From IMG/VR virus record IMGVR_UViG_2925891887_000003: a DNA stretch of 55,008 nt; one strand, written 5' to 3'. Both the position numbers and the translations under genes were made by a program. The first letter of the stretch is position 1. Every line of letters begins with the position of its first letter. Origin of the DNA: a virus (Duplodnaviria > Heunggongvirae > Uroviricota > Caudoviricetes). The notes beneath the pieces are model-generated. The model was not told where the DNA came from. It saw only the letters and a program-made list of their open reading frames with translations, and made no database searches. This document shows, one piece after another, positions 1 through 11,219 of the stretch.

Positions 1-2334
1 CTATTTTGTGATTTCGAGACTGCACTTCGGTAGCCAGTCAGCATTGCATTCTTCTCTAAGTGCCAGATTGGTCTGCATTCCCTGATTGGTCCGCCGCTTC
101 TCGTACTGCAGCCCATACTCTTTCAGCATTAACGGCAACCCCTTGCCAAACATGGTCAGACTGAGCGTGTTTTTATAGCCGTTGGCTTCCATGTAGACCA
201 GATAAGCATGGTAAAGGTATGTACGAGGCTGACGTGGGACAATATTGGCGTTCCCCATAAACATGCCGTTGGTGTCAGGTAATGCCTCAAGGTAGCCACA
301 AAAATCAAATGCTGGATCAGCATCACGCTTGATGGTGAGAGCCTCATCAGAATTCTGCTGCGACTGAAGCAATGTTCTGGCGCTCATCGGATCGCTGAAA
401 CGCTGCATGAGCTGACGAACAATCACAGCCAGTTCTCGTGCAATTTTATCTTTCAGCTGCGGATCGCGTTCTTCCGGTGCTATCTGCTCAGGAAAATGCA
501 GAATAACTCTCCTGCGGGACACACCACCACTGCGATCAGTGAAGCGCATAGGATTATTATTTACGGCCAGGATAACCGCCGGAATATGTGTTGAATAAGC
601 ATTCTGATATTTGGGGTCCACAGATACTGCATCGCCACCAGTTATAGCCTTAAGCCCGGCGCCGTCGCCGCTCCACTTCTCCTGATCAGGCAGGCGAATA
701 AGAGAAAAACCTATCAGAGCCGCACGTTCTCGCGGGGACTCCAGCGTTTCAATGGTCGCAGAGGTGGCGTTATCCTCTCCAGCAAGCATGGTCGCAATTT
801 CAGCCAGAATACTTTTGCCACTTCCACCAGGGCCAGTCACTTCCAGAAAGAGCTGCCAGTCATAGCGGTTCGCCAGCACCATAAATAACGCTGCAAGAAT
901 AATGTCGCGCTTTGCTGGCTTGTGTCCGGCGGCCCGGTCCAGCCAACGCCAGAATGCCGGGGCATGAGTTTCAAGCGTTTCCCCTTTTACCGGTGGCGTG
1001 AAATCGACTTCACACACGGTACGCAGCCAGTTCTCTTTACAGTGCGGACTAAAAAGCCCTGTTCGCGTATCGAGGACGCCATTACGAAAACCAATCAGAT
1101 GACGTGCCGGATTTTGCTGCTGCGGAACAATTAACTTTAATGTTTCCACCAATGAGGCAATTTTTCCTGAGGAAAACGGTGCACCGAGGCGCTGGAAAAG
1201 GGCTGCGACATCTCGGGCAAAATCTGACTGAGAAATCACTTTCCACGCTCCAGACTCGTAGCGGGATAAAAGCTGTCCGTTCGGATCAACCGCCAGTGCA
1301 TCCCTGTAATGCTCCCGAACCCTCTGAGCTTTTTCGCTGACACTCATCGCTGTGAATTCTGCTTCACTCATTGTGTCGAAAGGACTGGCGTTATGTGGCT
1401 TCAAAGCCTCAAGAATTGCCTTCCGGGTGGATTCCTCTCCGTAATGGGCAAGCGCATCATTCCAGTCACCAAAAACCGGTGGCAGCACAATGTCACACTG
1501 ACACGCTTTTGCAGCAGCTTCAGCCCTGTTCTGGCCTGAACCATTCAGATCTCGGTCCGCTGCAATAATTAGCTGATACCCCGGATACTTGTTATGGGCA
1601 ACGCTGGCCAGAGAAAGAAAGTTGACCGACGAAAATGCCACCATGACGGCTTCTCCTGTCAGATGATGAATGGTAAGCGCCGTTGCGTAACCTTCTGCAA
1701 TCCAAACCCTTCTTACAGAACTCCCGCCCCCTTCTATCAGATGATAGGCCTCCTTAACCTGACCTCCTTTAAGAAAACACTTGCTACCATTGCCACTGAT
1801 AAGCTGAATATTCACCAGCTCCCCGTCAGCGTTATAGAGCGGGACGATCAAATCACCGGGGCGGAACATCACCCCACCGGTTTTATGAGCTGAAGTCAGC
1901 TCATGGCAAACATGCTCCGGGAAACCTTTATGTGTAAGATAAGTGTTTCCGGCAGATTCACGCGAGGCTTGCAGCAGTCGCGCGGCAAGTGCTGCCGCTG
2001 CATCTTTCCCGCTATCGGTATCGGCGGTTAACGTCCTGACTTCGGAATTAGCTATAAACAGACCATGTGTCAGTCCATGTATCCTGTCAGCTGCTTCACT
2101 GATATCCACATTCAGTGCCCTGGTGACAAGCGCTAAACCATCCCCGGCTCCGCACTGATTGCAGAACCATGTTCCGCGTCCTTCCTGATCGTCGAAGCGA
2201 AAACGATCTTTACCGCCACAGACCGGACAAGGCTGATGGCGATTTTTCAATATATTCACGCCCAGCGCTGGCAGAATCTGAGCCCAGTGACCGCGGGCAG
2301 CCTTCACGGCCTGACTGACTTTCATTCCTGACAT
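1..2334 (-). CDS. P4 alpha-like bifunctional primase/helicase (satellite replication protein)
   Basis: ORF 1..2385; likely start at internal ATG 2334 (MSGMKVSQ...), giving 777 aa. N-terminal zinc ribbon CPVCGGKDRF...WFCNQCG typical of phage primases; Walker A GPGGSGKS in the C-terminal helicase part. Stop codon at 1-3. Confidence 0.85.
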   Translation of the reverse strand: MSGMKVSQAVKAARGHWAQILPALGVNILKNRHQPCPVCGGKDRFRFDDQEGRGTWFCNQCGAGDGLALVTRALNVDISEAADRIHGLTHGLFIANSEVRTLTADTDSGKDAAAALAARLLQASRESAGNTYLTHKGFPEHVCHELTSAHKTGGVMFRPGDLIVPLYNADGELVNIQLISGNGSKCFLKGGQVKEAYHLIEGGGSSVRRVWIAEGYATALTIHHLTGEAVMVAFSSVNFLSLASVAHNKYPGYQLIIAADRDLNGSGQNRAEAAAKACQCDIVLPPVFGDWNDALAHYGEESTRKAILEALKPHNASPFDTMSEAEFTAMSVSEKAQRVREHYRDALAVDPNGQLLSRYESGAWKVISQSDFARDVAALFQRLGAPFSSGKIASLVETLKLIVPQQQNPARHLIGFRNGVLDTRTGLFSPHCKENWLRTVCEVDFTPPVKGETLETHAPAFWRWLDRAAGHKPAKRDIILAALFMVLANRYDWQLFLEVTGPGGSGKSILAEIATMLAGEDNATSATIETLESPRERAALIGFSLIRLPDQEKWSGDGAGLKAITGGDAVSVDPKYQNAYSTHIPAVILAVNNNPMRFTDRSGGVSRRRVILHFPEQIAPEERDPQLKDKIARELAVIVRQLMQRFSDPMSARTLLQSQQNSDEALTIKRDADPAFDFCGYLEALPDTNGMFMGNANIVPRQPRTYLYHAYLVYMEANGYKNTLSLTMFGKGLPLMLKEYGLQYEKRRTNQGMQTNLALREECNADWLPKCSLEITK

Positions 2335-2893: not shown

Positions 2894-3287
2894 CACATCA
2901 CCTCCCGGACAGGCAGGCGAGCAGCAAGGCAAAGCACATATTCATGGACCAGTGAAAGACGTGCATGAGACTCATCGCTGGCGACAATACGCAGCATACT
3001 GATACGTGGTTTACGTTCTGCACGACGAACGGCGGCAAAAACAAATATAAATTGAGGATGTGATGGGGTGAGGATCGTAGCCATAAGGGCAATCTCCAAT
3101 AAGTAGCGGTTATTGCCACCACCAGAGCTGCAAATCTCATGGGTGATGGCCCGGACGGGGTTTGCAGTACCGGCCTTATTGGAAACCGGCCAGCCCGAAG
3201 GCTGCCCCGCCCGGACCACCATTATCTGACAGGAGCCACGGTGTAAGCACCACAGCCCGAAAAATAGGTGTGCCTGAGCAACGACAT

Positions 3288-3309
3288 AAAAAAACACGCT
3301 CGACGCGTG
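3288..3309 (-). terminator. intrinsic terminator downstream of the AlpA/Vis-like gene
   Basis: On the minus strand: 5-bp GC stem (CACGC/GCGTG, loop GTCGA) followed by U7 (plus-strand A-run 3288-3294). Confidence 0.45.
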
Positions 3310-3437
3310 CTGTGTCGCCAATAAGTTACACGGGCTGCAAATCCCGGCTGCCGATTTTGCGGCAGCGGAAAAACTATAACTGGAAAGGTTGCCAGGACGC
3401 AAGCCACAAAAAAAGAGATGAGACTGCAAAGCCAGAT

Positions 3438-4601: not shown

Positions 4602-5354
4602 ATGACAACTGTTAACCAGATCCCTGATGTAAACATTACACCTTCCCTCCCGCCGAAAATTCGCGAAGCGGTAGAAAAAGTTAAAGCAGCAAAAGCTGTC
4701 TGGCAGGAAGAACGGCGAAAACAAACTGAAGCCGCTGCAATGACTGAAACTATCCGTAAACGTCAGGAAGATACAAAAACGGAGACGCAGGCGCTTAATG
4801 ATGAATGGCGAAACCTGTTTCGTGAGAATCAGGGGAATATGACGCCACGAATGAAAAAACTGCGGGCAGAAATCGCCCTCGGACGCGAAACACTGGATGA
4901 GTTCGAAGATTTGCTGGCAGCTCAGGCCGCAGAAAATGAATTCCTGCCATGGAAAACTGCGGATGCTGCAAACCGCTACATCAGCGAACATAATCGCCTG
5001 ATTGAAACTCATGCAGTGTGGCTCTGGAATGAGTTTATGAAGGAACACGGCCAGAAACTTATTCAGATCCTTGGACTGCTGAAAATGACTCTGGGCCGAA
5101 GCGCATCTTCTGTTATCGGTGTAGTTCATACCGTAAACGACCCCGAAAGTGTGCTGAAGCAATTTATCAGCGAGCAACTCACCACTCCGGCACTGTCCTG
5201 TAACGTATCTTCAACGGATGATATTGCCCTGCCGGGGATCAGCATTTATGCGGACGATAAAGCCATACAGGATGCCAGACAATCACCCAGCCCTGCAGCG
5301 CGTTCCCGGATGCTTAAACAGCGTGACATGGTTAAAGGGGGCGAGAAGGAATGA
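4602..5354 (+). CDS. P4 late-operon protein, possibly Sid-like capsid size determination protein
   Basis: ORF 4569..5354 (TTG); ATG at 4602 with GGAG upstream preferred (250 aa). Predicted helical and charged; first gene of the operon ending in Psu-like and Ogr/Delta genes. Sid assignment is positional only. Confidence 0.4.
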   Translation: MTTVNQIPDVNITPSLPPKIREAVEKVKAAKAVWQEERRKQTEAAAMTETIRKRQEDTKTETQALNDEWRNLFRENQGNMTPRMKKLRAEIALGRETLDEFEDLLAAQAAENEFLPWKTADAANRYISEHNRLIETHAVWLWNEFMKEHGQKLIQILGLLKMTLGRSASSVIGVVHTVNDPESVLKQFISEQLTTPALSCNVSSTDDIALPGISIYADDKAIQDARQSPSPAARSRMLKQRDMVKGGEKE

Positions 5355-5905
5355 ATACCGGAACCATTACTAAGGAAGCTCTCAACGATTACCGCGCGGC
5401 GATAAAAAGCTGGCTGACACTACGTAATGTGCAAAGTACCAGCCAGCTTCGTCTGGCGGCTTTGCTGGATACTGAAGAAAAACCCGCAGCATATGCCAGC
5501 CAACTTGAGGATCTTCGTGAGCATCTTGTACTCCTCGAATGGCAGATTAACTGTGCCGCCCGGGATGGTCTTTATGCTCACCAGATTGTGCTGGAAAGCT
5601 GTGTTACAAGCGCAACTGAAAACTTCATGAGCGAGCATGGTGATGCACTCACTGACGCTCTGGCTCCTTTTCTTTGCGCACCATACGGGCTTGAGGCGGC
5701 AATGAAAATATTACGAACCGCTGTAGCCCGACAAACGGAAGTCCGTACTCCGGTAATTTCAGCAGCATATAAGAGCATTATCGACGAAACCGGATTAACG
5801 GTGGATGCATCAATGCGCGCTGATGCTTCAGCCAGTTTCACCCCGGCACAACATAAAGTTTTCCTGGCCCGCCTTAACCGACTTAATGAAAAAGGAGTGT
5901 GCTGA
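5351..5905 (+). CDS. Psu-like (polarity suppression / capsid decoration) protein
   Basis: 184 aa; ATGA overlap with the upstream gene. Segments ALTDALAPFL and SFTPAQHKVF resemble what I recall of P4 Psu. Moderate confidence. Confidence 0.55.
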   Translation: MNTGTITKEALNDYRAAIKSWLTLRNVQSTSQLRLAALLDTEEKPAAYASQLEDLREHLVLLEWQINCAARDGLYAHQIVLESCVTSATENFMSEHGDALTDALAPFLCAPYGLEAAMKILRTAVARQTEVRTPVISAAYKSIIDETGLTVDASMRADASASFTPAQHKVFLARLNRLNEKGVC

Positions 5906-5906
5906 T

Positions 5907-6179
5907 ATGGCCCTGAAGTGTCCTGAATGTGGCGCGGTCGCTCACGCTAGAACCAGCGCCTATGAAGCTCCGTCGGTTAAACGCTCATGGTATCAGTGCC
6001 AGAGTCTGGAATGTTCCTGCACATTTACCGCACTGGAAAGCGTGGATACGATAATTATGAAGCCTCGGCGCAATGAACAGGCATCAGACAAAGCAAAAAT
6101 GCCGGAAAAACAACAGCAAACTCTCAATCGCTATGGCTCCGCGTCAAAGCTGTCAAACCGTCAGCAAATTCCTGTCTGA
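5907..6179 (+). CDS. Ogr/Delta-family zinc-finger late transcription activator
   Basis: MALKCPECGAVAHARTSAYEAPSVKRSWYQCQSLECSCTFTALESV matches the Ogr/Delta C-x2-C...C-x4-C finger pattern; AAAGGAG RBS 9 nt upstream of the ATG. Confidence 0.85.
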   Translation: MALKCPECGAVAHARTSAYEAPSVKRSWYQCQSLECSCTFTALESVDTIIMKPRRNEQASDKAKMPEKQQQTLNRYGSASKLSNRQQIPV

Positions 6180-6270
6180 TTAGCAAAATACGCCCACGAA
6201 GTCTCGGTCCAGTACCGGGATTTTTTACGCTTTTTCCCTGGCTGGCCTGAGAGCGTATGAGTGCATATCT

Positions 6271-6309
6271 ATGGCGCATGAAAACGCATGAGTCTCATGC
6301 GCCATTTTT
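6271..6309 (+). terminator. intrinsic terminator of the late operon
   Basis: Perfect 11-bp inverted repeat atggcgcatga / tcatgcgccat followed by TTTTT. Confidence 0.6.
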
Positions 6310-6383
6310 GACGCGAAAGCCCTTGTGTGGTGGCTTCTGAGACGATTTAAGGGGTGCATGAAAACCAGTCTGTTAAGCGAAGC

Positions 6384-6407
6384 GGGCAGGCGGGCGGGGC
6401 TGCGCAC
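6384..6407. other. candidate cos (cohesive end) site of the P4-like element
   Basis: GC-rich gggcaggcgggcggggctgcgcac resembles my recollection of the P2/P4 cohesive end (GGCGAGGCGGGGAAAGCAC); sits where cos is expected, between the late operon and the cargo/int region. Not verified by alignment. Confidence 0.3.
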
Positions 6408-6451
6408 GCTGAGGGGAAGTATTGAGATCGGTGAGGGGAAATCTGATTCAT

Positions 6452-6473
6452 TAAAAAGGCCGCTTTCGCGGCC
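6452..6473 (-). terminator. intrinsic terminator ending the reverse-transcriptase operon
   Basis: Minus strand: GGCCGC-GAAA-GCGGCC hairpin followed by UUUUU, ~120 nt downstream of the RT-B stop. Confidence 0.6.
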
Positions 6474-6590
6474 TGTTTAGCTAAAAGGCAATAGTGTGTC
6501 TAAATCGGTCCATCCTCAAAACGTATCGCGAATATCTTTCGGATGAACATTCAAAAGCCGATCTTCCGGTATCTGCTTCAGGTCGAAACC

Positions 6591-8630
6591 TTAGGCATCG
6601 CAACCCTTTAACGAAATTAAAATACTACTATTCATATGCTGTTCGCAACTCTTTTTTATAAAGAACGTGCTCAAGATCAGCATCTCCAGACCAGTTAAAA
6701 AGATTACATTATTTTTTAAAGAATCAATTTCAGAATCAATTACTGCATTCGTAAATCTTTTTTGACCTGTATTTGCTTCGACATATGTTCTATAAATTAT
6801 TCTCTTATGCTTAACTGTAAGATATGGGCACGTCATCATATCAAGGAATAGCATAAATGTTTCAGTGTCTTTTTTTATATCGTTCCGACCACTTATCAAA
6901 CTCTGTATAGCAAGGACAATATCTTCTTTCATTTTTAGATAGAGAACATCATCGCCTATATAGTGTAACATGCTGCATATAGAAAAATATTCTAAATCGT
7001 AAAAACACTCATTCTCACTAATACCCAACAAATCCTTAAATTCATCTGGATTGAGTTTATACTGCTCCCCCAAACCTTTCATACATATAAGTAAGTTAGA
7101 TAACTCCACTGGCCTCTCATGAATATTACCCATGCTTTTCATGCACATAAGAAGCTCATCAAAAGTATTCTTTTTTATAACTTCACTAATGTCTGAAGCT
7201 TGCTTATTAGCAAATGAATTTATTTCCAAAATAACTTGGCTAATTATGTATGTCTGTCGGACTCGAAAATCCATAGCATAAATAAAAAAAATCACCTCAT
7301 TGAATATTGAGAAGAATTTATAAGTTATATCTTCTTTTCCTGACAGATCGAACATCCTCAACAGCCTAATTACTTTGAAAAACTTACTCTTAATCGCACT
7401 TATTAAGTATGAGCTAACAAGATCAAATGTGGTATTGTTTTTTCTAACCGCAATTTTGATTCGTTTTATAAATTTGTCCGCGTGTAGCTTTTTATTCCAT
7501 ACACCTTTCAATGGAAAAAGGTTATTCATATTTTCAGGCTGAATTTTGACGTCTGGATTTAAATTAACCATAGCTGTTAACTCATCCAACTTCTCAGTAT
7601 GGATTAACGATCCATATAAATCCTCAATGATTTCTGCAATATCATTTTTAGCCATCGTGGCTCCAGTCACGAATGGCCTCTCGATAAATTCCTTTTTAGA
7701 TTCATTCAAATAAAGCTTATATTTTTCGAGTTCATTTGCCAGTACAAATTCTATTAGCTTAAATGTTTCATCATCATCCGCAAATATAAAATAATCATCA
7801 ACGTAACGTCTTATAGCATAGCTCTTATCTTTAACTATGCCTGGCTCAAGATTCAAATGAGACTCAACATTCAAGTCAACGCGCTGTAATATAATCTCCG
7901 CAAATATCCTTGAAAATTCAGGCCCAATTATTATGCCATTTGTTTCACCATAATTGGCATCTTGAAAAAGCTTATCCAAACAACCTTCAAAGCTGTTATA
8001 AGTTCTATTAACCTTAGAGAATTCTTTAGATTTTACAGCCCATGAAACGCTGTGTGTATATATATGACTAAAACACTTAGCAATATCAAGCTTTAAAAGT
8101 TTCCTAAACTTCCTTTCCAATCTATGAAATTCATATGACTCATAAAACTTATAGATGAAAGGATATTTCTTATATGAAAAATGGGAAGATGAGGAAGTTT
8201 CTTGGGAATCAAAGCCATGATTATGAAATTGTACAAGACCATCTTTTAGATTTATTCTACTTTTTAAGAAGTCCTTTTCGTAATAATAGCTCCCTATTTT
8301 GCTAGGATAACGTAGCGAAAACGGACTTTTTGTACACATATGAACCATCAAATGTTCATACTTATCATAAAAATCACAGATTCTTAACTGCGTTGAAGGA
8401 TGTATAATGCCAAGGCTTCGAGAACTCGCCAGCCCCTTTTTTATTTTATAGGAGTAAGGGATGGTATAAGAATCCAGCTTAAGGCCTTCTGAAAATGTTC
8501 CGGGTAAAACTTTATTTTCAGAAATTAACTTATAGAAACCTTCGTTAGAAAAAAGGATAGGGACTTCATATGGTAAAATATCCGTGAGAAGTACTCTTTT
8601 ATAATCACTCTTCGATATTTTAATTTTCAT
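6591..8630 (-). CDS. reverse transcriptase, large (RT-B; UG/Abi-class defence-type RT with ~390-aa C-terminal extension)
   Basis: 679 aa, ~30% GC. RT motifs: LKLDIAKCFSHIYTHSV (motif A with Asp), NGIIIGPEFSRIFAEIILQRVD (motif B), RRYVDDYFIFADD (motif C, YVDD). GGTGA RBS; start 3 nt after the RT-A stop. Confidence 0.85.
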   Translation of the reverse strand: MKIKISKSDYKRVLLTDILPYEVPILFSNEGFYKLISENKVLPGTFSEGLKLDSYTIPYSYKIKKGLASSRSLGIIHPSTQLRICDFYDKYEHLMVHMCTKSPFSLRYPSKIGSYYYEKDFLKSRINLKDGLVQFHNHGFDSQETSSSSHFSYKKYPFIYKFYESYEFHRLERKFRKLLKLDIAKCFSHIYTHSVSWAVKSKEFSKVNRTYNSFEGCLDKLFQDANYGETNGIIIGPEFSRIFAEIILQRVDLNVESHLNLEPGIVKDKSYAIRRYVDDYFIFADDDETFKLIEFVLANELEKYKLYLNESKKEFIERPFVTGATMAKNDIAEIIEDLYGSLIHTEKLDELTAMVNLNPDVKIQPENMNNLFPLKGVWNKKLHADKFIKRIKIAVRKNNTTFDLVSSYLISAIKSKFFKVIRLLRMFDLSGKEDITYKFFSIFNEVIFFIYAMDFRVRQTYIISQVILEINSFANKQASDISEVIKKNTFDELLMCMKSMGNIHERPVELSNLLICMKGLGEQYKLNPDEFKDLLGISENECFYDLEYFSICSMLHYIGDDVLYLKMKEDIVLAIQSLISGRNDIKKDTETFMLFLDMMTCPYLTVKHKRIIYRTYVEANTGQKRFTNAVIDSEIDSLKNNVIFLTGLEMLILSTFFIKKSCEQHMNSSILISLKGCDA

Positions 8631-8633
8631 GAA

Positions 8634-9830
8634 TCACCAAACCTTATTTATTTTAATAATATCTTCCCGTTTAAAAGAAGACAGTAGCCGTTTTTCAAAA
8701 CCAGCCAAAAATGAGTATTTTTTAGGCGCAGTTAATAAGTTGTGACCTGCTGCTAAAATTTTTCTCCCCACCTCGCCCTTTGAAGAAAATAGCATCCTAT
8801 TCTTAAATATATCAAGTTCCTTGAGCTGTGTTTTATCAGTTATATGTTGATAATTGTAATAAATTCCACTATATAAAGCATCAGTTTTATTACTATTGGA
8901 GTTTACTAATATATTACCAGTTAAATACTTTATTCTTTTCTTCAAGAGTTCTGCATCAGAATTATTTGAGTAATCTTTTACCGCAAGTGCAATCCTTCTT
9001 TTTATTTTCTTTATTTTCTCCTCCGAAATTCTGATCACAACATGACGACGCTGATTTTTTAATCCATGGTGTATAATAAATGAATATCCCAAAAACTCAA
9101 TTTCAGAATGTTTAGTTGAAGTGTCCTCTATGGTATACTCACTGCACTTTCTTTCATTTAAATGTAATCCATTTGGTAAAATCCTTGAAAAATAATTTTT
9201 ATAATCTGGTATTTTATAGAATGAAAAAACTATGATATCATCCACATATCTTGAAGCATAAAAAACTTCAGGCAGCCTCGCCAACTCAGCATCAAATTCC
9301 TCCATAAATATTTCTGATAAAGTCGCACTTAATCCCATACCACGGGGAAGTCCGTTATTTGCAGAGAAAGCGTTATGTTTAAAAAGACCATTGATAAATT
9401 TTTTAGTATTATGAGAAATAATCGGGTTATTATTAATTCTTTGGAAAACGATATTTTTATCTATTGATTCATAAAAACTCTTAATATCCAGCCTGTAAAT
9501 ATAATAATTTACAGGCTCACTTAACACTGTATTTACTTTTTTTATGATGTCATGTCTGTTGTTTTGTTTAACACTATACACACGCTTAATGTTATCATTT
9601 ATTTTCCTGGCGACAAGTACATCCATAAAATCTTTAAATATATACACATTTTTGTTGTTAATTCTTGAATTTGAGATCGAACCAAATGAGTATGTTTCAA
9701 TTGAGCCATTAACTTTATCAGCTATATATTTTTTATATTCAGCTGAATTCCTACCAATTTTGTATCTTTTTGGATCGGTTTTTTTTAAAAGCTTAATTAA
9801 GTTCGAAACGGAAAATGACTGGTTTAACAT
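8634..9830 (-). CDS. reverse transcriptase, small (RT-A; UG/Abi-class defence-type RT)
   Basis: ORF track starts at GTG 9863 (overlapping int); ATG at 9830 with AAGGGG RBS preferred (398 aa). Motifs: YRLDIKSFYESID (A), GLPRGMGLSATLSEIFMEEFD (B), YASRYVDDIIVFS (C, YVDD). AT-rich. Confidence 0.85.
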   Translation of the reverse strand: MLNQSFSVSNLIKLLKKTDPKRYKIGRNSAEYKKYIADKVNGSIETYSFGSISNSRINNKNVYIFKDFMDVLVARKINDNIKRVYSVKQNNRHDIIKKVNTVLSEPVNYYIYRLDIKSFYESIDKNIVFQRINNNPIISHNTKKFINGLFKHNAFSANNGLPRGMGLSATLSEIFMEEFDAELARLPEVFYASRYVDDIIVFSFYKIPDYKNYFSRILPNGLHLNERKCSEYTIEDTSTKHSEIEFLGYSFIIHHGLKNQRRHVVIRISEEKIKKIKRRIALAVKDYSNNSDAELLKKRIKYLTGNILVNSNSNKTDALYSGIYYNYQHITDKTQLKELDIFKNRMLFSSKGEVGRKILAAGHNLLTAPKKYSFLAGFEKRLLSSFKREDIIKINKVW

Positions 9831-9831
9831 A

Positions 9832-11010
9832 TTATAACCCCTTTTTTTTGCGAAGATAATCACTGTACCATTGCATCATCTTCTGCCTTTCCATAAGGTA
9901 TATGGCATGATTATAAGTTCCTCTTATATTATTTCTATCAACATGAGCTAATTGGACTTCAATAAATGCTGATTGAAAACCTTCTTCATGCAAAATTGTT
10001 GATAACATATGTCTGAACCCGTGACCAGTGAGTCGGCCTTCGTAACCGATACGCTTGATAACTTGATTTATGCTAGCTTCGCTCATCGGTTTGTTCGGAT
10101 CGTTCCGTCCTGGAAAAACATAACGATAGTTCCCTGTCATTATCTTGAGTTCATGGAGTAAATCTAACGCTTGGGTCGACAATGGCACAAGATGCGGCCT
10201 GCGCATTTTCATCCTTTCAGCAGGAATTTCCCAAATAGCGTTATCCAGATCAAATTCTTGCCATAATGCCGCGCGTAATTCGATGGTTCTCACGCCCGTA
10301 ATCATCAGTAATTTCGTTGCTATCTGGACAAGCTTACTCCCGGTGTAACTCTCTAAGGCACGCAGAAATTCGGGTATCTCATCAGCTTTTAGGAACGGGA
10401 AATGATTGGATTGGTGCACTTCGAGAGCGCTGGAAAGATCTGCCGCAGGATTGTACTCCGCTCTACCCGTTGCAATTGCGTAGCGAAACACTTCAGAGCA
10501 ACGCTGACGCACTTTCCGCATTTTCTCCAACGCACCACGTTTCTCAATTTTACGCAGTACGTTCAGCAGCTCTAGCGGTTTAATCTCACTCACAGGCCTT
10601 GTTCCAACATAAGGAAAAATGTCGTTCTTAAACGCTTCCATGATGTCTGATGCATATCCTGCCGACCATTTAGCAGATTTAAGTTGATGCCACTCTCTGG
10701 CTATCTTTTCGAAGGCGTTCTCTGACTCTGCTTGCAGAGCCAGCTTTTGCTCTTTTCGAACATCACTAGGGTTCTTTCCTTCTGCCACAAGTTTTCGAGC
10801 TTCATCACGACGGGAACGAGCATCGGCAAGAGTGATCGTTGGGTAAACGCCAAGCGAGATCATCTTGGGTTTACCGGCATAGCGATAGCGGAACCGCCAG
10901 CTCTTGCTTCCATTAGGTTCTATAAGCAATGACAAGCCTTGCCCATCCCCAAGCGTATAGGGTTTATCTTCAGGCTTAGCGCGGCGAATCTGCATATCGT
11001 TTAAAGGCAT
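9832..11010 (-). CDS. int: P4-type tyrosine integrase
   Basis: 392 aa; N-terminus MPLNDMQIRRAKPEDKPYTLGDGQGLSL... typical of P4-family integrases; C-terminal HGFRHM...RGTYNHAIY catalytic region. Adjacent to the duplicated thrW 3' segment. Confidence 0.9.
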   Translation of the reverse strand: MPLNDMQIRRAKPEDKPYTLGDGQGLSLLIEPNGSKSWRFRYRYAGKPKMISLGVYPTITLADARSRRDEARKLVAEGKNPSDVRKEQKLALQAESENAFEKIAREWHQLKSAKWSAGYASDIMEAFKNDIFPYVGTRPVSEIKPLELLNVLRKIEKRGALEKMRKVRQRCSEVFRYAIATGRAEYNPAADLSSALEVHQSNHFPFLKADEIPEFLRALESYTGSKLVQIATKLLMITGVRTIELRAALWQEFDLDNAIWEIPAERMKMRRPHLVPLSTQALDLLHELKIMTGNYRYVFPGRNDPNKPMSEASINQVIKRIGYEGRLTGHGFRHMLSTILHEEGFQSAFIEVQLAHVDRNNIRGTYNHAIYLMERQKMMQWYSDYLRKKKGL

Positions 11011-11172: not shown

Positions 11173-11219
11173 ATGGTGCCGATAATAGGAGTCGAACCTA
11201 CGACCTTCGCATTACGAAT
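11173..11219. repeat. att site: 47-bp duplicate of the thrW 3' end, junction between the two tandem elements
   Basis: atggtgccgataataggagtcgaacctacgaccttcgcattacgaat is identical to 53564-53610, which overlaps the 3' end of the intact tRNA. Confidence 0.85.

Follow-up and report, generated by a model that had tools for sequence, protein, structure and literature searches.

The locus examined here raises the question of whether a GC-rich, non-coding block beside a reverse transcriptase operon is a packaging site through which a P2-type helper phage could mobilize that operon. The block lies within a 55,008-nucleotide stretch of DNA (hereafter, the window; IMG/VR record IMGVR_UViG_2925891887_000003), and an initial annotation had placed it at 6330-6450, between convergent terminators, and likened it to the cohesive-end sequence of P2 and P4. 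Our analysis indicates, with a probability of about 0.85, that positions 6261-6412 serve a P4-like satellite prophage, inserted at thrW, as its cos (cohesive-end packaging) signal.

Escherichia coli chromosomes such as NZ_CP195467.1 match the first 12 kb of the window at 100% identity, and positions 1-11.2 kb make up the greater part of a P4-like satellite prophage of ~12.8 kb, which occupies the E. coli thrW locus. In the RefSeq annotation, the left part of this satellite reads primase-helicase, DUF5375 protein, Icd-like protein, HTH regulator, hypothetical protein, 'phage polarity suppression protein', and Ogr/Delta zinc-finger protein, followed, on the opposite strand, by drt3b, drt3a, and a tyrosine integrase. 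The alpha primase-helicase (1-2334, minus strand, 777 aa) contains the Pfam domains Zn_Ribbon_Prim, Toprim_3, D5_N, and Pox_D5, and a P4-type immunity RNA (CI/C4 antisense RNA) was detected at 3139-3226 on the minus strand (Rfam RF01695, 86 bits, E=2e-16), along with its a1b1 targets and isrK at 3139-3379 (Rfam). The late operon, on the plus strand, begins with a sid-like capsid-size gene (4602-5354), recognized by a weak Pfam Psu-family match and its RefSeq annotation, and continues with psu (polarity suppression/capsid decoration; 5351-5905, Pfam Psu E=9.5e-34) and delta, a single-domain, 90-aa Ogr/Delta zinc-finger late-gene activator (5907-6179, Pfam Ogr_Delta E=2.6e-15). Sid and Psu are homologues. 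A P4-type tyrosine integrase with Arm-DNA-bind_3, Phage_int_M, and Phage_integrase domains is encoded at 9832-11010 on the minus strand. AlpA, Ash, and DUF5375 were also detected by Pfam, and all of int, alpha, alpA, sid, psu, and delta, the core set of P4-like satellites according to de Sousa and Rocha (PMC8628076), were found by Pfam in a P4-like order. The epsilon/kil region is taken up by the Ash/Icd-like gene, and no clear epsilon homologue was recognized in the satellite. In contrast with P4, where the gene order is sid-delta-psu, the order in the window is sid-psu-delta, and the two Psu proteins are only 28% identical; a tblastn search with Psu from the window found P4 alone at this level of identity, and no sequenced relative such as phiR73.

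The ends of the satellite are marked by repeats of the thrW 3' end that match at 16 of 17 nt. The attR site, a partial copy of the 3' end of tRNA-Thr (thrW), is located at 11174-11198 on the plus strand, where AR_0019 has an intact tRNA-Thr directly beside int, while the attL copy, TGGTGC-GATAATAGGA, is an imperfect 17-nt repeat ~1.6 kb to the left of the window start. A 14-nt direct repeat, AATCCTATACACAT, had also been considered as att and was dropped in favor of the tRNA-Thr 3'-end repeat. The satellite is thus bounded at ~12.8 kb, ~10% longer than the 11.6 kb of P4 (PMC7552001), and it is complete, with its genes, immunity RNA, and both att copies intact. To the left of the window start (L001:1810-2907), a 365-aa hypothetical gene is present between alpha and attL, an interval that in P4 contains only att and crr, and this gene may represent a second cargo position in this satellite clade. 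The surroundings form a tandem array at thrW, in which the partial tRNA-Thr at 11174-11198 ends the satellite and an intact tRNA-Thr (CGT) follows 42 kb further on, at 53565-53640, with another integrase after it. The two tRNA-Thr copies are separated by a small island (hypothetical, DUF2254, BCCT transporter) and by a ~35-kb prophage of HK97/lambdoid type with a contractile-tail module. No helper prophage was found in the window, the neighboring prophage being HK97/lambdoid-like.

The cargo of the satellite is the model EcoDRT3 system together with its ncRNA and terminator. It comprises drt3b, encoding the UG8 reverse transcriptase (6591-8630, minus strand), named as such in RefSeq and near-identical to chain A of PDB 26cz, with 1434 bits across 643 residues, and drt3a, encoding the UG3 reverse transcriptase (8634-9830, minus strand; RefSeq name and Pfam). 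The RefSeq drt3a and drt3b proteins, at 398 and 667 aa, have the lengths of EcoDRT3a and EcoDRT3b in PMC13174585, and in the same work the DRT3 ncRNA follows drt3b on its downstream side and contains a template loop with conserved 5'-ACACAC-3'. A likely DRT3 ncRNA occupies approximately 6475-6612 on the minus strand, between drt3b and the terminator, with ACACAC at 6498-6493 (GTGTGT on the plus strand at 6493-6498), and in the predicted fold a long closing helix brackets ACACAC and the terminator forms the last hairpin; Rfam 15 contained no family matching this region. The intrinsic terminator itself, identified by terminator scan, lies at 6457-6474 on the minus strand and is followed by the T-run TTTTTAATGAA. 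Since ACACAC lies just before this terminator hairpin, and given the published position of the ncRNA, what had initially been called the RT-operon terminator most likely forms the 3' end of the transcript of this ncRNA. We also observed that drt3b has five A residues at 6697-6701 (minus strand), compared to six in NZ_CP195467.1, the sole difference in 12 kb. The resulting frameshift replaces the last ~24 residues with 36 others and moves the stop from ~6628 to 6591, into the ncRNA region, and it may reflect either true inactivation by mutation or a sequencing error in the homopolymer.

The composition of the block agrees with its initial description. GC content is 0.58-0.65 over 6340-6429, falling to ~0.45-0.5 on the left side and to ~0.3 on the right, in the cargo, and the same interval has a strongly positive GC skew, that is, an excess of G on the plus strand. 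The string originally singled out, ggcaggcgggcggggctgcgcac, is present at 6385-6407, and there are indeed terminators on both sides, with hairpins followed by T-runs at 6285-6301 on the plus strand and 6474-6457 on the minus strand. No Rfam family matched the block. The interval of 6330-6450, in contrast, needs redrawing: the block is real, but its conserved part, the cos core, is confined to 6355-~6412, and 6416-6451 belongs to the cargo side.

Comparison with the P4 cos junction, the P2 ends with their annotated cosL and cosR, and the cos region of Felsduovirus RE-2010 identified 6355-6412 (plus strand) as a cos core, in which 6355-6409 is the homologue of the 55-bp core common to P2-family phages and P4 (Ziermann and Calendar 1990, as cited in PMC5694545) and GCTGA follows. 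The core consists of a TGCATGAAAACC box, a G-rich cohesive-end segment, and a CGCACGC box, which corresponds to a layout shared by P2, P4, RE-2010, and the window, namely a TGCAT(T/G)AAAACC box, a G-rich segment, and a YGCRCGC box. In P2 and P4, as in the window, ~17 nt separate the first box from a G-rich segment containing GGCGGG, and the overall spacing is identical; TGCAT through GCTGA covers 58 nt in each of P2, RE-2010, and the window. Divided at known or predicted nicks, the core reads TGCATTAAAACCGCCCCGTGAAGCGGGCG / GGCGAGGCGGGGAAAGCAC / TGCGCGCTGA in P2, TGCATTAAAACCGCCCCGCAAAGCGGGCG / GGCGAGGCGGGGAAAGCAC / CGCGCGCAAA in P4, and TGCATGAAAACCATTACATAAAGCGGGCA / GGCGTGGCGGGGATACGAG / CGCGCGCTGA in RE-2010, and at predicted nicks TGCATGAAAACCAGTCTGTTAAGCGAAGC / GGGCAGGCGGGCGGGGCTG / CGCACGCTGA in the window. 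The position of the core is also syntenic with that in P4 (NC_001609, cos junction 11596-11624/1-26), where cos likewise comes just downstream of the sid/psu/delta late operon and before the non-essential, variable hotspot region and int. In P2 (NC_001895), cos lies between a hotspot and gpQ, so that a location next to a hotspot is shared with the window as well.

Without gaps, the 58-mer at 6355-6412 is identical to P2 at 38/58 positions, to P4 at 36/58, and to RE-2010 at 38/58. Of the ~110,000 positions on the two strands of the window, no other matches as well (z of about 7; next best, 29-31), and when 35 distinct cos sites of P2-like phages, satellites left out, were made into an nhmmer profile, it matched 6355-6405 at E=1.7e-4 as the sole significant match in the window. 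The alignment to P2/P4 cos that the initial annotation had put forward as a check is therefore significant. MAFFT aligned the core without gaps to the cos sites of 46 P2-like prophages, while the best gapped (profile) alignment needs three indels. A Smith-Waterman comparison with the P4 cos junction was borderline, its score of 31 equaling the best of 1000 shuffles. A blastn search of a phage collection with 6180-6500 returned weak matches only (E 0.09-0.3), which were to the cos regions of P2-like phages (RE-2010, and Burkholderia phages near the ends of their records), and did not reach P2 or P4; blastn with the sid-psu-delta-cos stretch gave no match among phages. The best database match to the block, though weak, was the cos of RE-2010 (NC_019488, ~9803-9860), a full P2-like phage whose core is collinear with that of P2. 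RE-2010 and the window both have TGCATGAAAACC and AAGCGGGCAGGCG, and the RE-2010 upstream block, GCGCATGTCTATGCTGCATGAGATCGCATGA, is very close to GTGCATATCTATGGCGCATGAAAACGCATGA of the window, whereas its right half, GGGGATACGAGCGCGCGC, is unlike the window. A second TGCATTAAAACC, in L011/L021, was rejected as a chance match inside a coding region.

On the left, the signal extends further than position 6330. A block of GCAT repeats at 6261-6296 (plus strand), with GCAT starting at 6263, 6276, and 6286, is probably the terminase-recognition part of cos, and the core box at 6356-6365 recurs without any change in its middle repeat, GCATGAAAAC (6276-6285). Counted from the T of the core TGCAT, these repeats start at -92, -79, and -69 in the window and in 15/15 satellites of the clade, compared to -93, -81, and -71 in P2, -94, -81, and -71 in P4, and -104, -94, -81, and -71 in RE-2010; P2, P4, and the window thus share three such repeats, placed ~70-94 bp left of the core. 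When 35 P2-like prophages were aligned to the left of cos, the GCAT repeats were kept and little else, with the consensus TGCATnTAnnTGCATnAnTTTGCATGCGT and ~10-nt phasing, the flanks being otherwise unalignable because of the different cargo to the left of cos. Searched with a phage-only profile of this upstream block, the window gave its top match at 6261-6296 (E=0.0066), where both distance and orientation are as expected.

This repeat block overlaps the late-operon terminator that had been taken as the left boundary. The terminator, found by terminator scan at 6273-6311 on the plus strand, has a stem at 6285-6301 followed by CCATTTTTGA and is built in part from the GCAT repeats, and the late-operon terminator hairpin of P4 is likewise made of GCAT repeats (GCCATGCA...TGCATGGCTTT). 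Because the repeats lie at conserved distances and the stem is made of them, the packaging signal probably spans ~6261-6412 and extends into the terminator. A second, weaker hairpin and T-run (ctcggtccagtaccggg atttttt) follows the delta stop codon directly, at 6203-6226, and termination of the late operon ahead of cos may thus involve two terminators in tandem. In the IMG/VR satellites L116-L127, whose Psu is ~93% identical, an extra gene is inserted after delta, placing cos further downstream.

Within the satellite clade, the whole intergenic stretch is ~95% conserved, and the clade alignment is therefore uninformative about selection at cos specifically. A more distant satellite, L131, with a Psu that is 42% identical, has an almost unchanged upstream block, GTGCATGTCTATGCTGCATGAAAACGCATGA, next to a cos core of RE-2010/Fels-2 type (L131:3900-4060; IMG/VR 3300013723_000009), a combination that would fit selection on a packaging signal. 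Core types differ among satellites, in that P4 has the P2 type and the clade of the window its own, and satellite cos types may track different helper lineages. From these patterns we infer that the GCAT repeats are probably the terminase-binding part of the signal; a text search of the literature did not find TGCAT described together with cos and terminase, the 1990 cos paper lying outside the reach of that search. We put forward only tentatively the broader idea that the P2-family signal is bipartite, with three GCAT repeats in helical phase, at ~70-94 bp from the core, that are kept in P2-like phages as well as in P4-like satellites despite replaced surroundings, and that are better conserved between distant satellites than is the cohesive end. 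If this is true, the repeats and the TGCATKAAAACC box would be what gives the terminase its specificity, and a large clade of E. coli satellites could have drifted to a cohesive end unlike that of any helper and still be packageable. As the repeats also form the late-operon terminator in these satellites, the point where late transcription stops would be physically linked to the packaging site.

The proposed likeness to the P2/P4 cohesive end holds for the cos core as a homologue, but the cohesive end itself is only a diverged relative. A 19-nt cohesive end is predicted from the alignments within 6384-6407 (plus strand), in one of two candidate registers. In the register that preserves spacing, the overhang is 6384-6402 (GGGCAGGCGGGCGGGGCTG), identical at 11/19 positions to the P2/P4 overhang GGCGAGGCGGGGAAAGCAC, and is followed by CGCACGC where P4 has CGCGCGC. 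In the register with the best local sequence match, which is the one chosen by nhmmer, the overhang is 6389-6407 (GGCGGGCGGGGCTGCGCAC) and ends in GCAC as in P2. This local register is anchored by AAGCGGGCA / GGCG at the nick and matches 11 of the first 12 P2 positions across one 1-nt gap before a different tail, and it implies, relative to the motif AAGCGGGCR|GGCG, a 5-nt AAGCG duplication with compensating deletions. The segment thus appears related to its P2/P4 counterpart but clearly diverged, and the predicted nick positions are ambiguous. Cohesive ends of the 186 and RE-2010 types also differ from GGCGAGGCGGGGAAAGCAC at a few positions.

The right edge of the signal coincides with a boundary, at 6400-6416, between conserved backbone and variable cargo that is apparent both in E. 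coli matches and in satellite alignments. A search with 6310-6452 matched 855 of 5426 complete E. coli genomes, and these matches end at query positions 94-107 (6403-6416), except for 15 that run on to 6452. Past the boundary, other genomes have cargos that include an ABC-three-component system, retron St85, and IS66, and further relatives have genes annotated as ATP-dependent nuclease and UvrD-family helicase; IMG/VR satellites with other cargos diverge at the same 6400-6416 break. Since backbone matches stop here in all but 15 genomes, 6417-6450 travels with the DRT3 cassette, and the spacer at 6417-6456, which contains the T-run of the minus-strand terminator, is common only to DRT3-carrying satellites. 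A 9-nt direct repeat, TGAGGGGAA, occurs in the last conserved backbone (6410-6418) and again in the DRT3-linked spacer (6432-6440), and may have been left by the recombination event through which this cargo became joined to the backbone. Elsewhere, homology breaks inside or a few bases from the cohesive-end segment in a satellite (L007:6090-6110) and in two P2-like prophages (L072 and L097); L007, from E. coli O26 RM8426, reads GGCGGGCGGGGC / ATTGCGCGC and has a 186-like right half. Breaks at the cohesive end fit the idea, put forward in PMC9122126, that cos ends seed cargo exchange. The locus is the cos-adjacent hotspot of Rousset et al. 2022, in which, according to that paper (PMC9122126) and to PMC8628076 and PMC13586616, the interval from psu to int next to cos is an interchangeable site for defense systems, and its layout is well known. 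Nothing essential distinguishes the window from that description, the same backbone carrying unrelated cargos in other genomes; the cargo here is DRT3, a system not named in the available passages of the paper.

Given how far the cohesive end has diverged, it could be argued that the block is a relic, descended from a P2/P4 cos but cut by no terminase, and that the satellite and DRT3 are inherited only vertically at thrW. The overhang identity of 11/19 and the indels implied by the profile alignment speak for this, as does the helper side of the comparison: all 20 IMG/VR contigs with the exact core 21-mer are satellites and none is a helper phage, and 46 P2-like prophages with a P2-type gpQ all have the canonical P2 core, none of them the core variant of the window. 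Little diversity of helper cos types was sampled, however, since all 80 gpQ loci were at least 99% P2-like. The frameshift in drt3b and the finding that thrW is the locus of every full-length DRT3 carrier examined can be counted on the same side, but a common locus is expected from site-specific integration, and the satellite itself retains every one of its genes, its immunity RNA, and both att copies. Decay is also hard to reconcile with a box spacing preserved at exactly 58 nt and with upstream repeats preserved at the right distances. Moreover, the same core occurs in hundreds of genomes beside many different cargos, which points to ongoing exchange at this site. We therefore regard a relic as unlikely.

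Two further readings would assign the block to something other than packaging. It lies only ~40 nt beyond the DRT3 terminator, and the ncRNA has been placed downstream of drt3b (PMC13174585), so the block might be an ncRNA, 3' UTR, or regulatory element of the DRT3 cassette rather than part of the satellite backbone. This is very improbable, given that 6310-~6410 is present in 855 genomes and the DRT3 junction in only 15, that the minus-strand terminator (6474-6457 and its T-run) ends the transcript before the block, and that the ACACAC template at 6493-6498 is on the far side of this terminator. Finally, the six-frame list contains two open reading frames here, 6325-6480 (plus strand, 51 aa) and 6225-6407 (minus strand, 60 aa), but the former crosses the homology break at ~6416 and its second half is consequently missing from nearly all relatives, the latter runs through the terminator hairpin and the repeat block, and neither is annotated in RefSeq; that the block encodes a small protein is scarcely credible.

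If 6261-6412 is a working cos signal, growth of a P2-type helper would lead the satellite to excise (Int and AlpA) and replicate (alpha), and Delta would turn on the late genes of the helper. The helper terminase (gpM/gpP) would then bind the GCAT repeats and the TGCATGAAAACC box and nick the G-rich segment in a staggered fashion, leaving a 19-nt 5' overhang at 6384-6402 or 6389-6407, and helper capsids reduced in size by Sid would take up the ~12.8-kb genome along with its DRT3 cassette. Transcription of the late operon and of DRT3 would be kept from crossing cos by the convergent terminators. Packaging by a P2-type helper, and hence a mobile reverse transcriptase cargo, as the initial annotation had suggested, is a reasonable inference, and that helper packaging makes such cargo mobile is the view of these hotspots given in PMC9122126. 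An earlier study, as cited in PMC8628076, concerned a retron-carrying P4-like element that needed P2 for transfer. There, too, a reverse transcriptase cargo in a P4-like satellite was moved by a P2 helper, the cargo being a retron rather than DRT3. We take that element to be the retronphage phiR73 (retron Ec73, ~12.7 kb), reportedly the subject of work by Inouye and colleagues in 1991. At ~12.7 kb, phiR73 is similar in size to the satellite of the window, and its integration site is probably selC, as opposed to thrW here.

These results mark the EcoDRT3 cassette as satellite cargo that a P2-type helper could move between strains. A swap point adjacent to cos explains the position of the cassette, and hundreds of E. 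coli satellites carry different defense systems at this point. The finding helps with annotation and with understanding the spread of DRT3, and in this it repeats an established picture. Only two points are mildly new, a cohesive-end sequence specific to the clade and the conservation of the GCAT repeats upstream, and both would help predict which helpers can mobilize which satellites.
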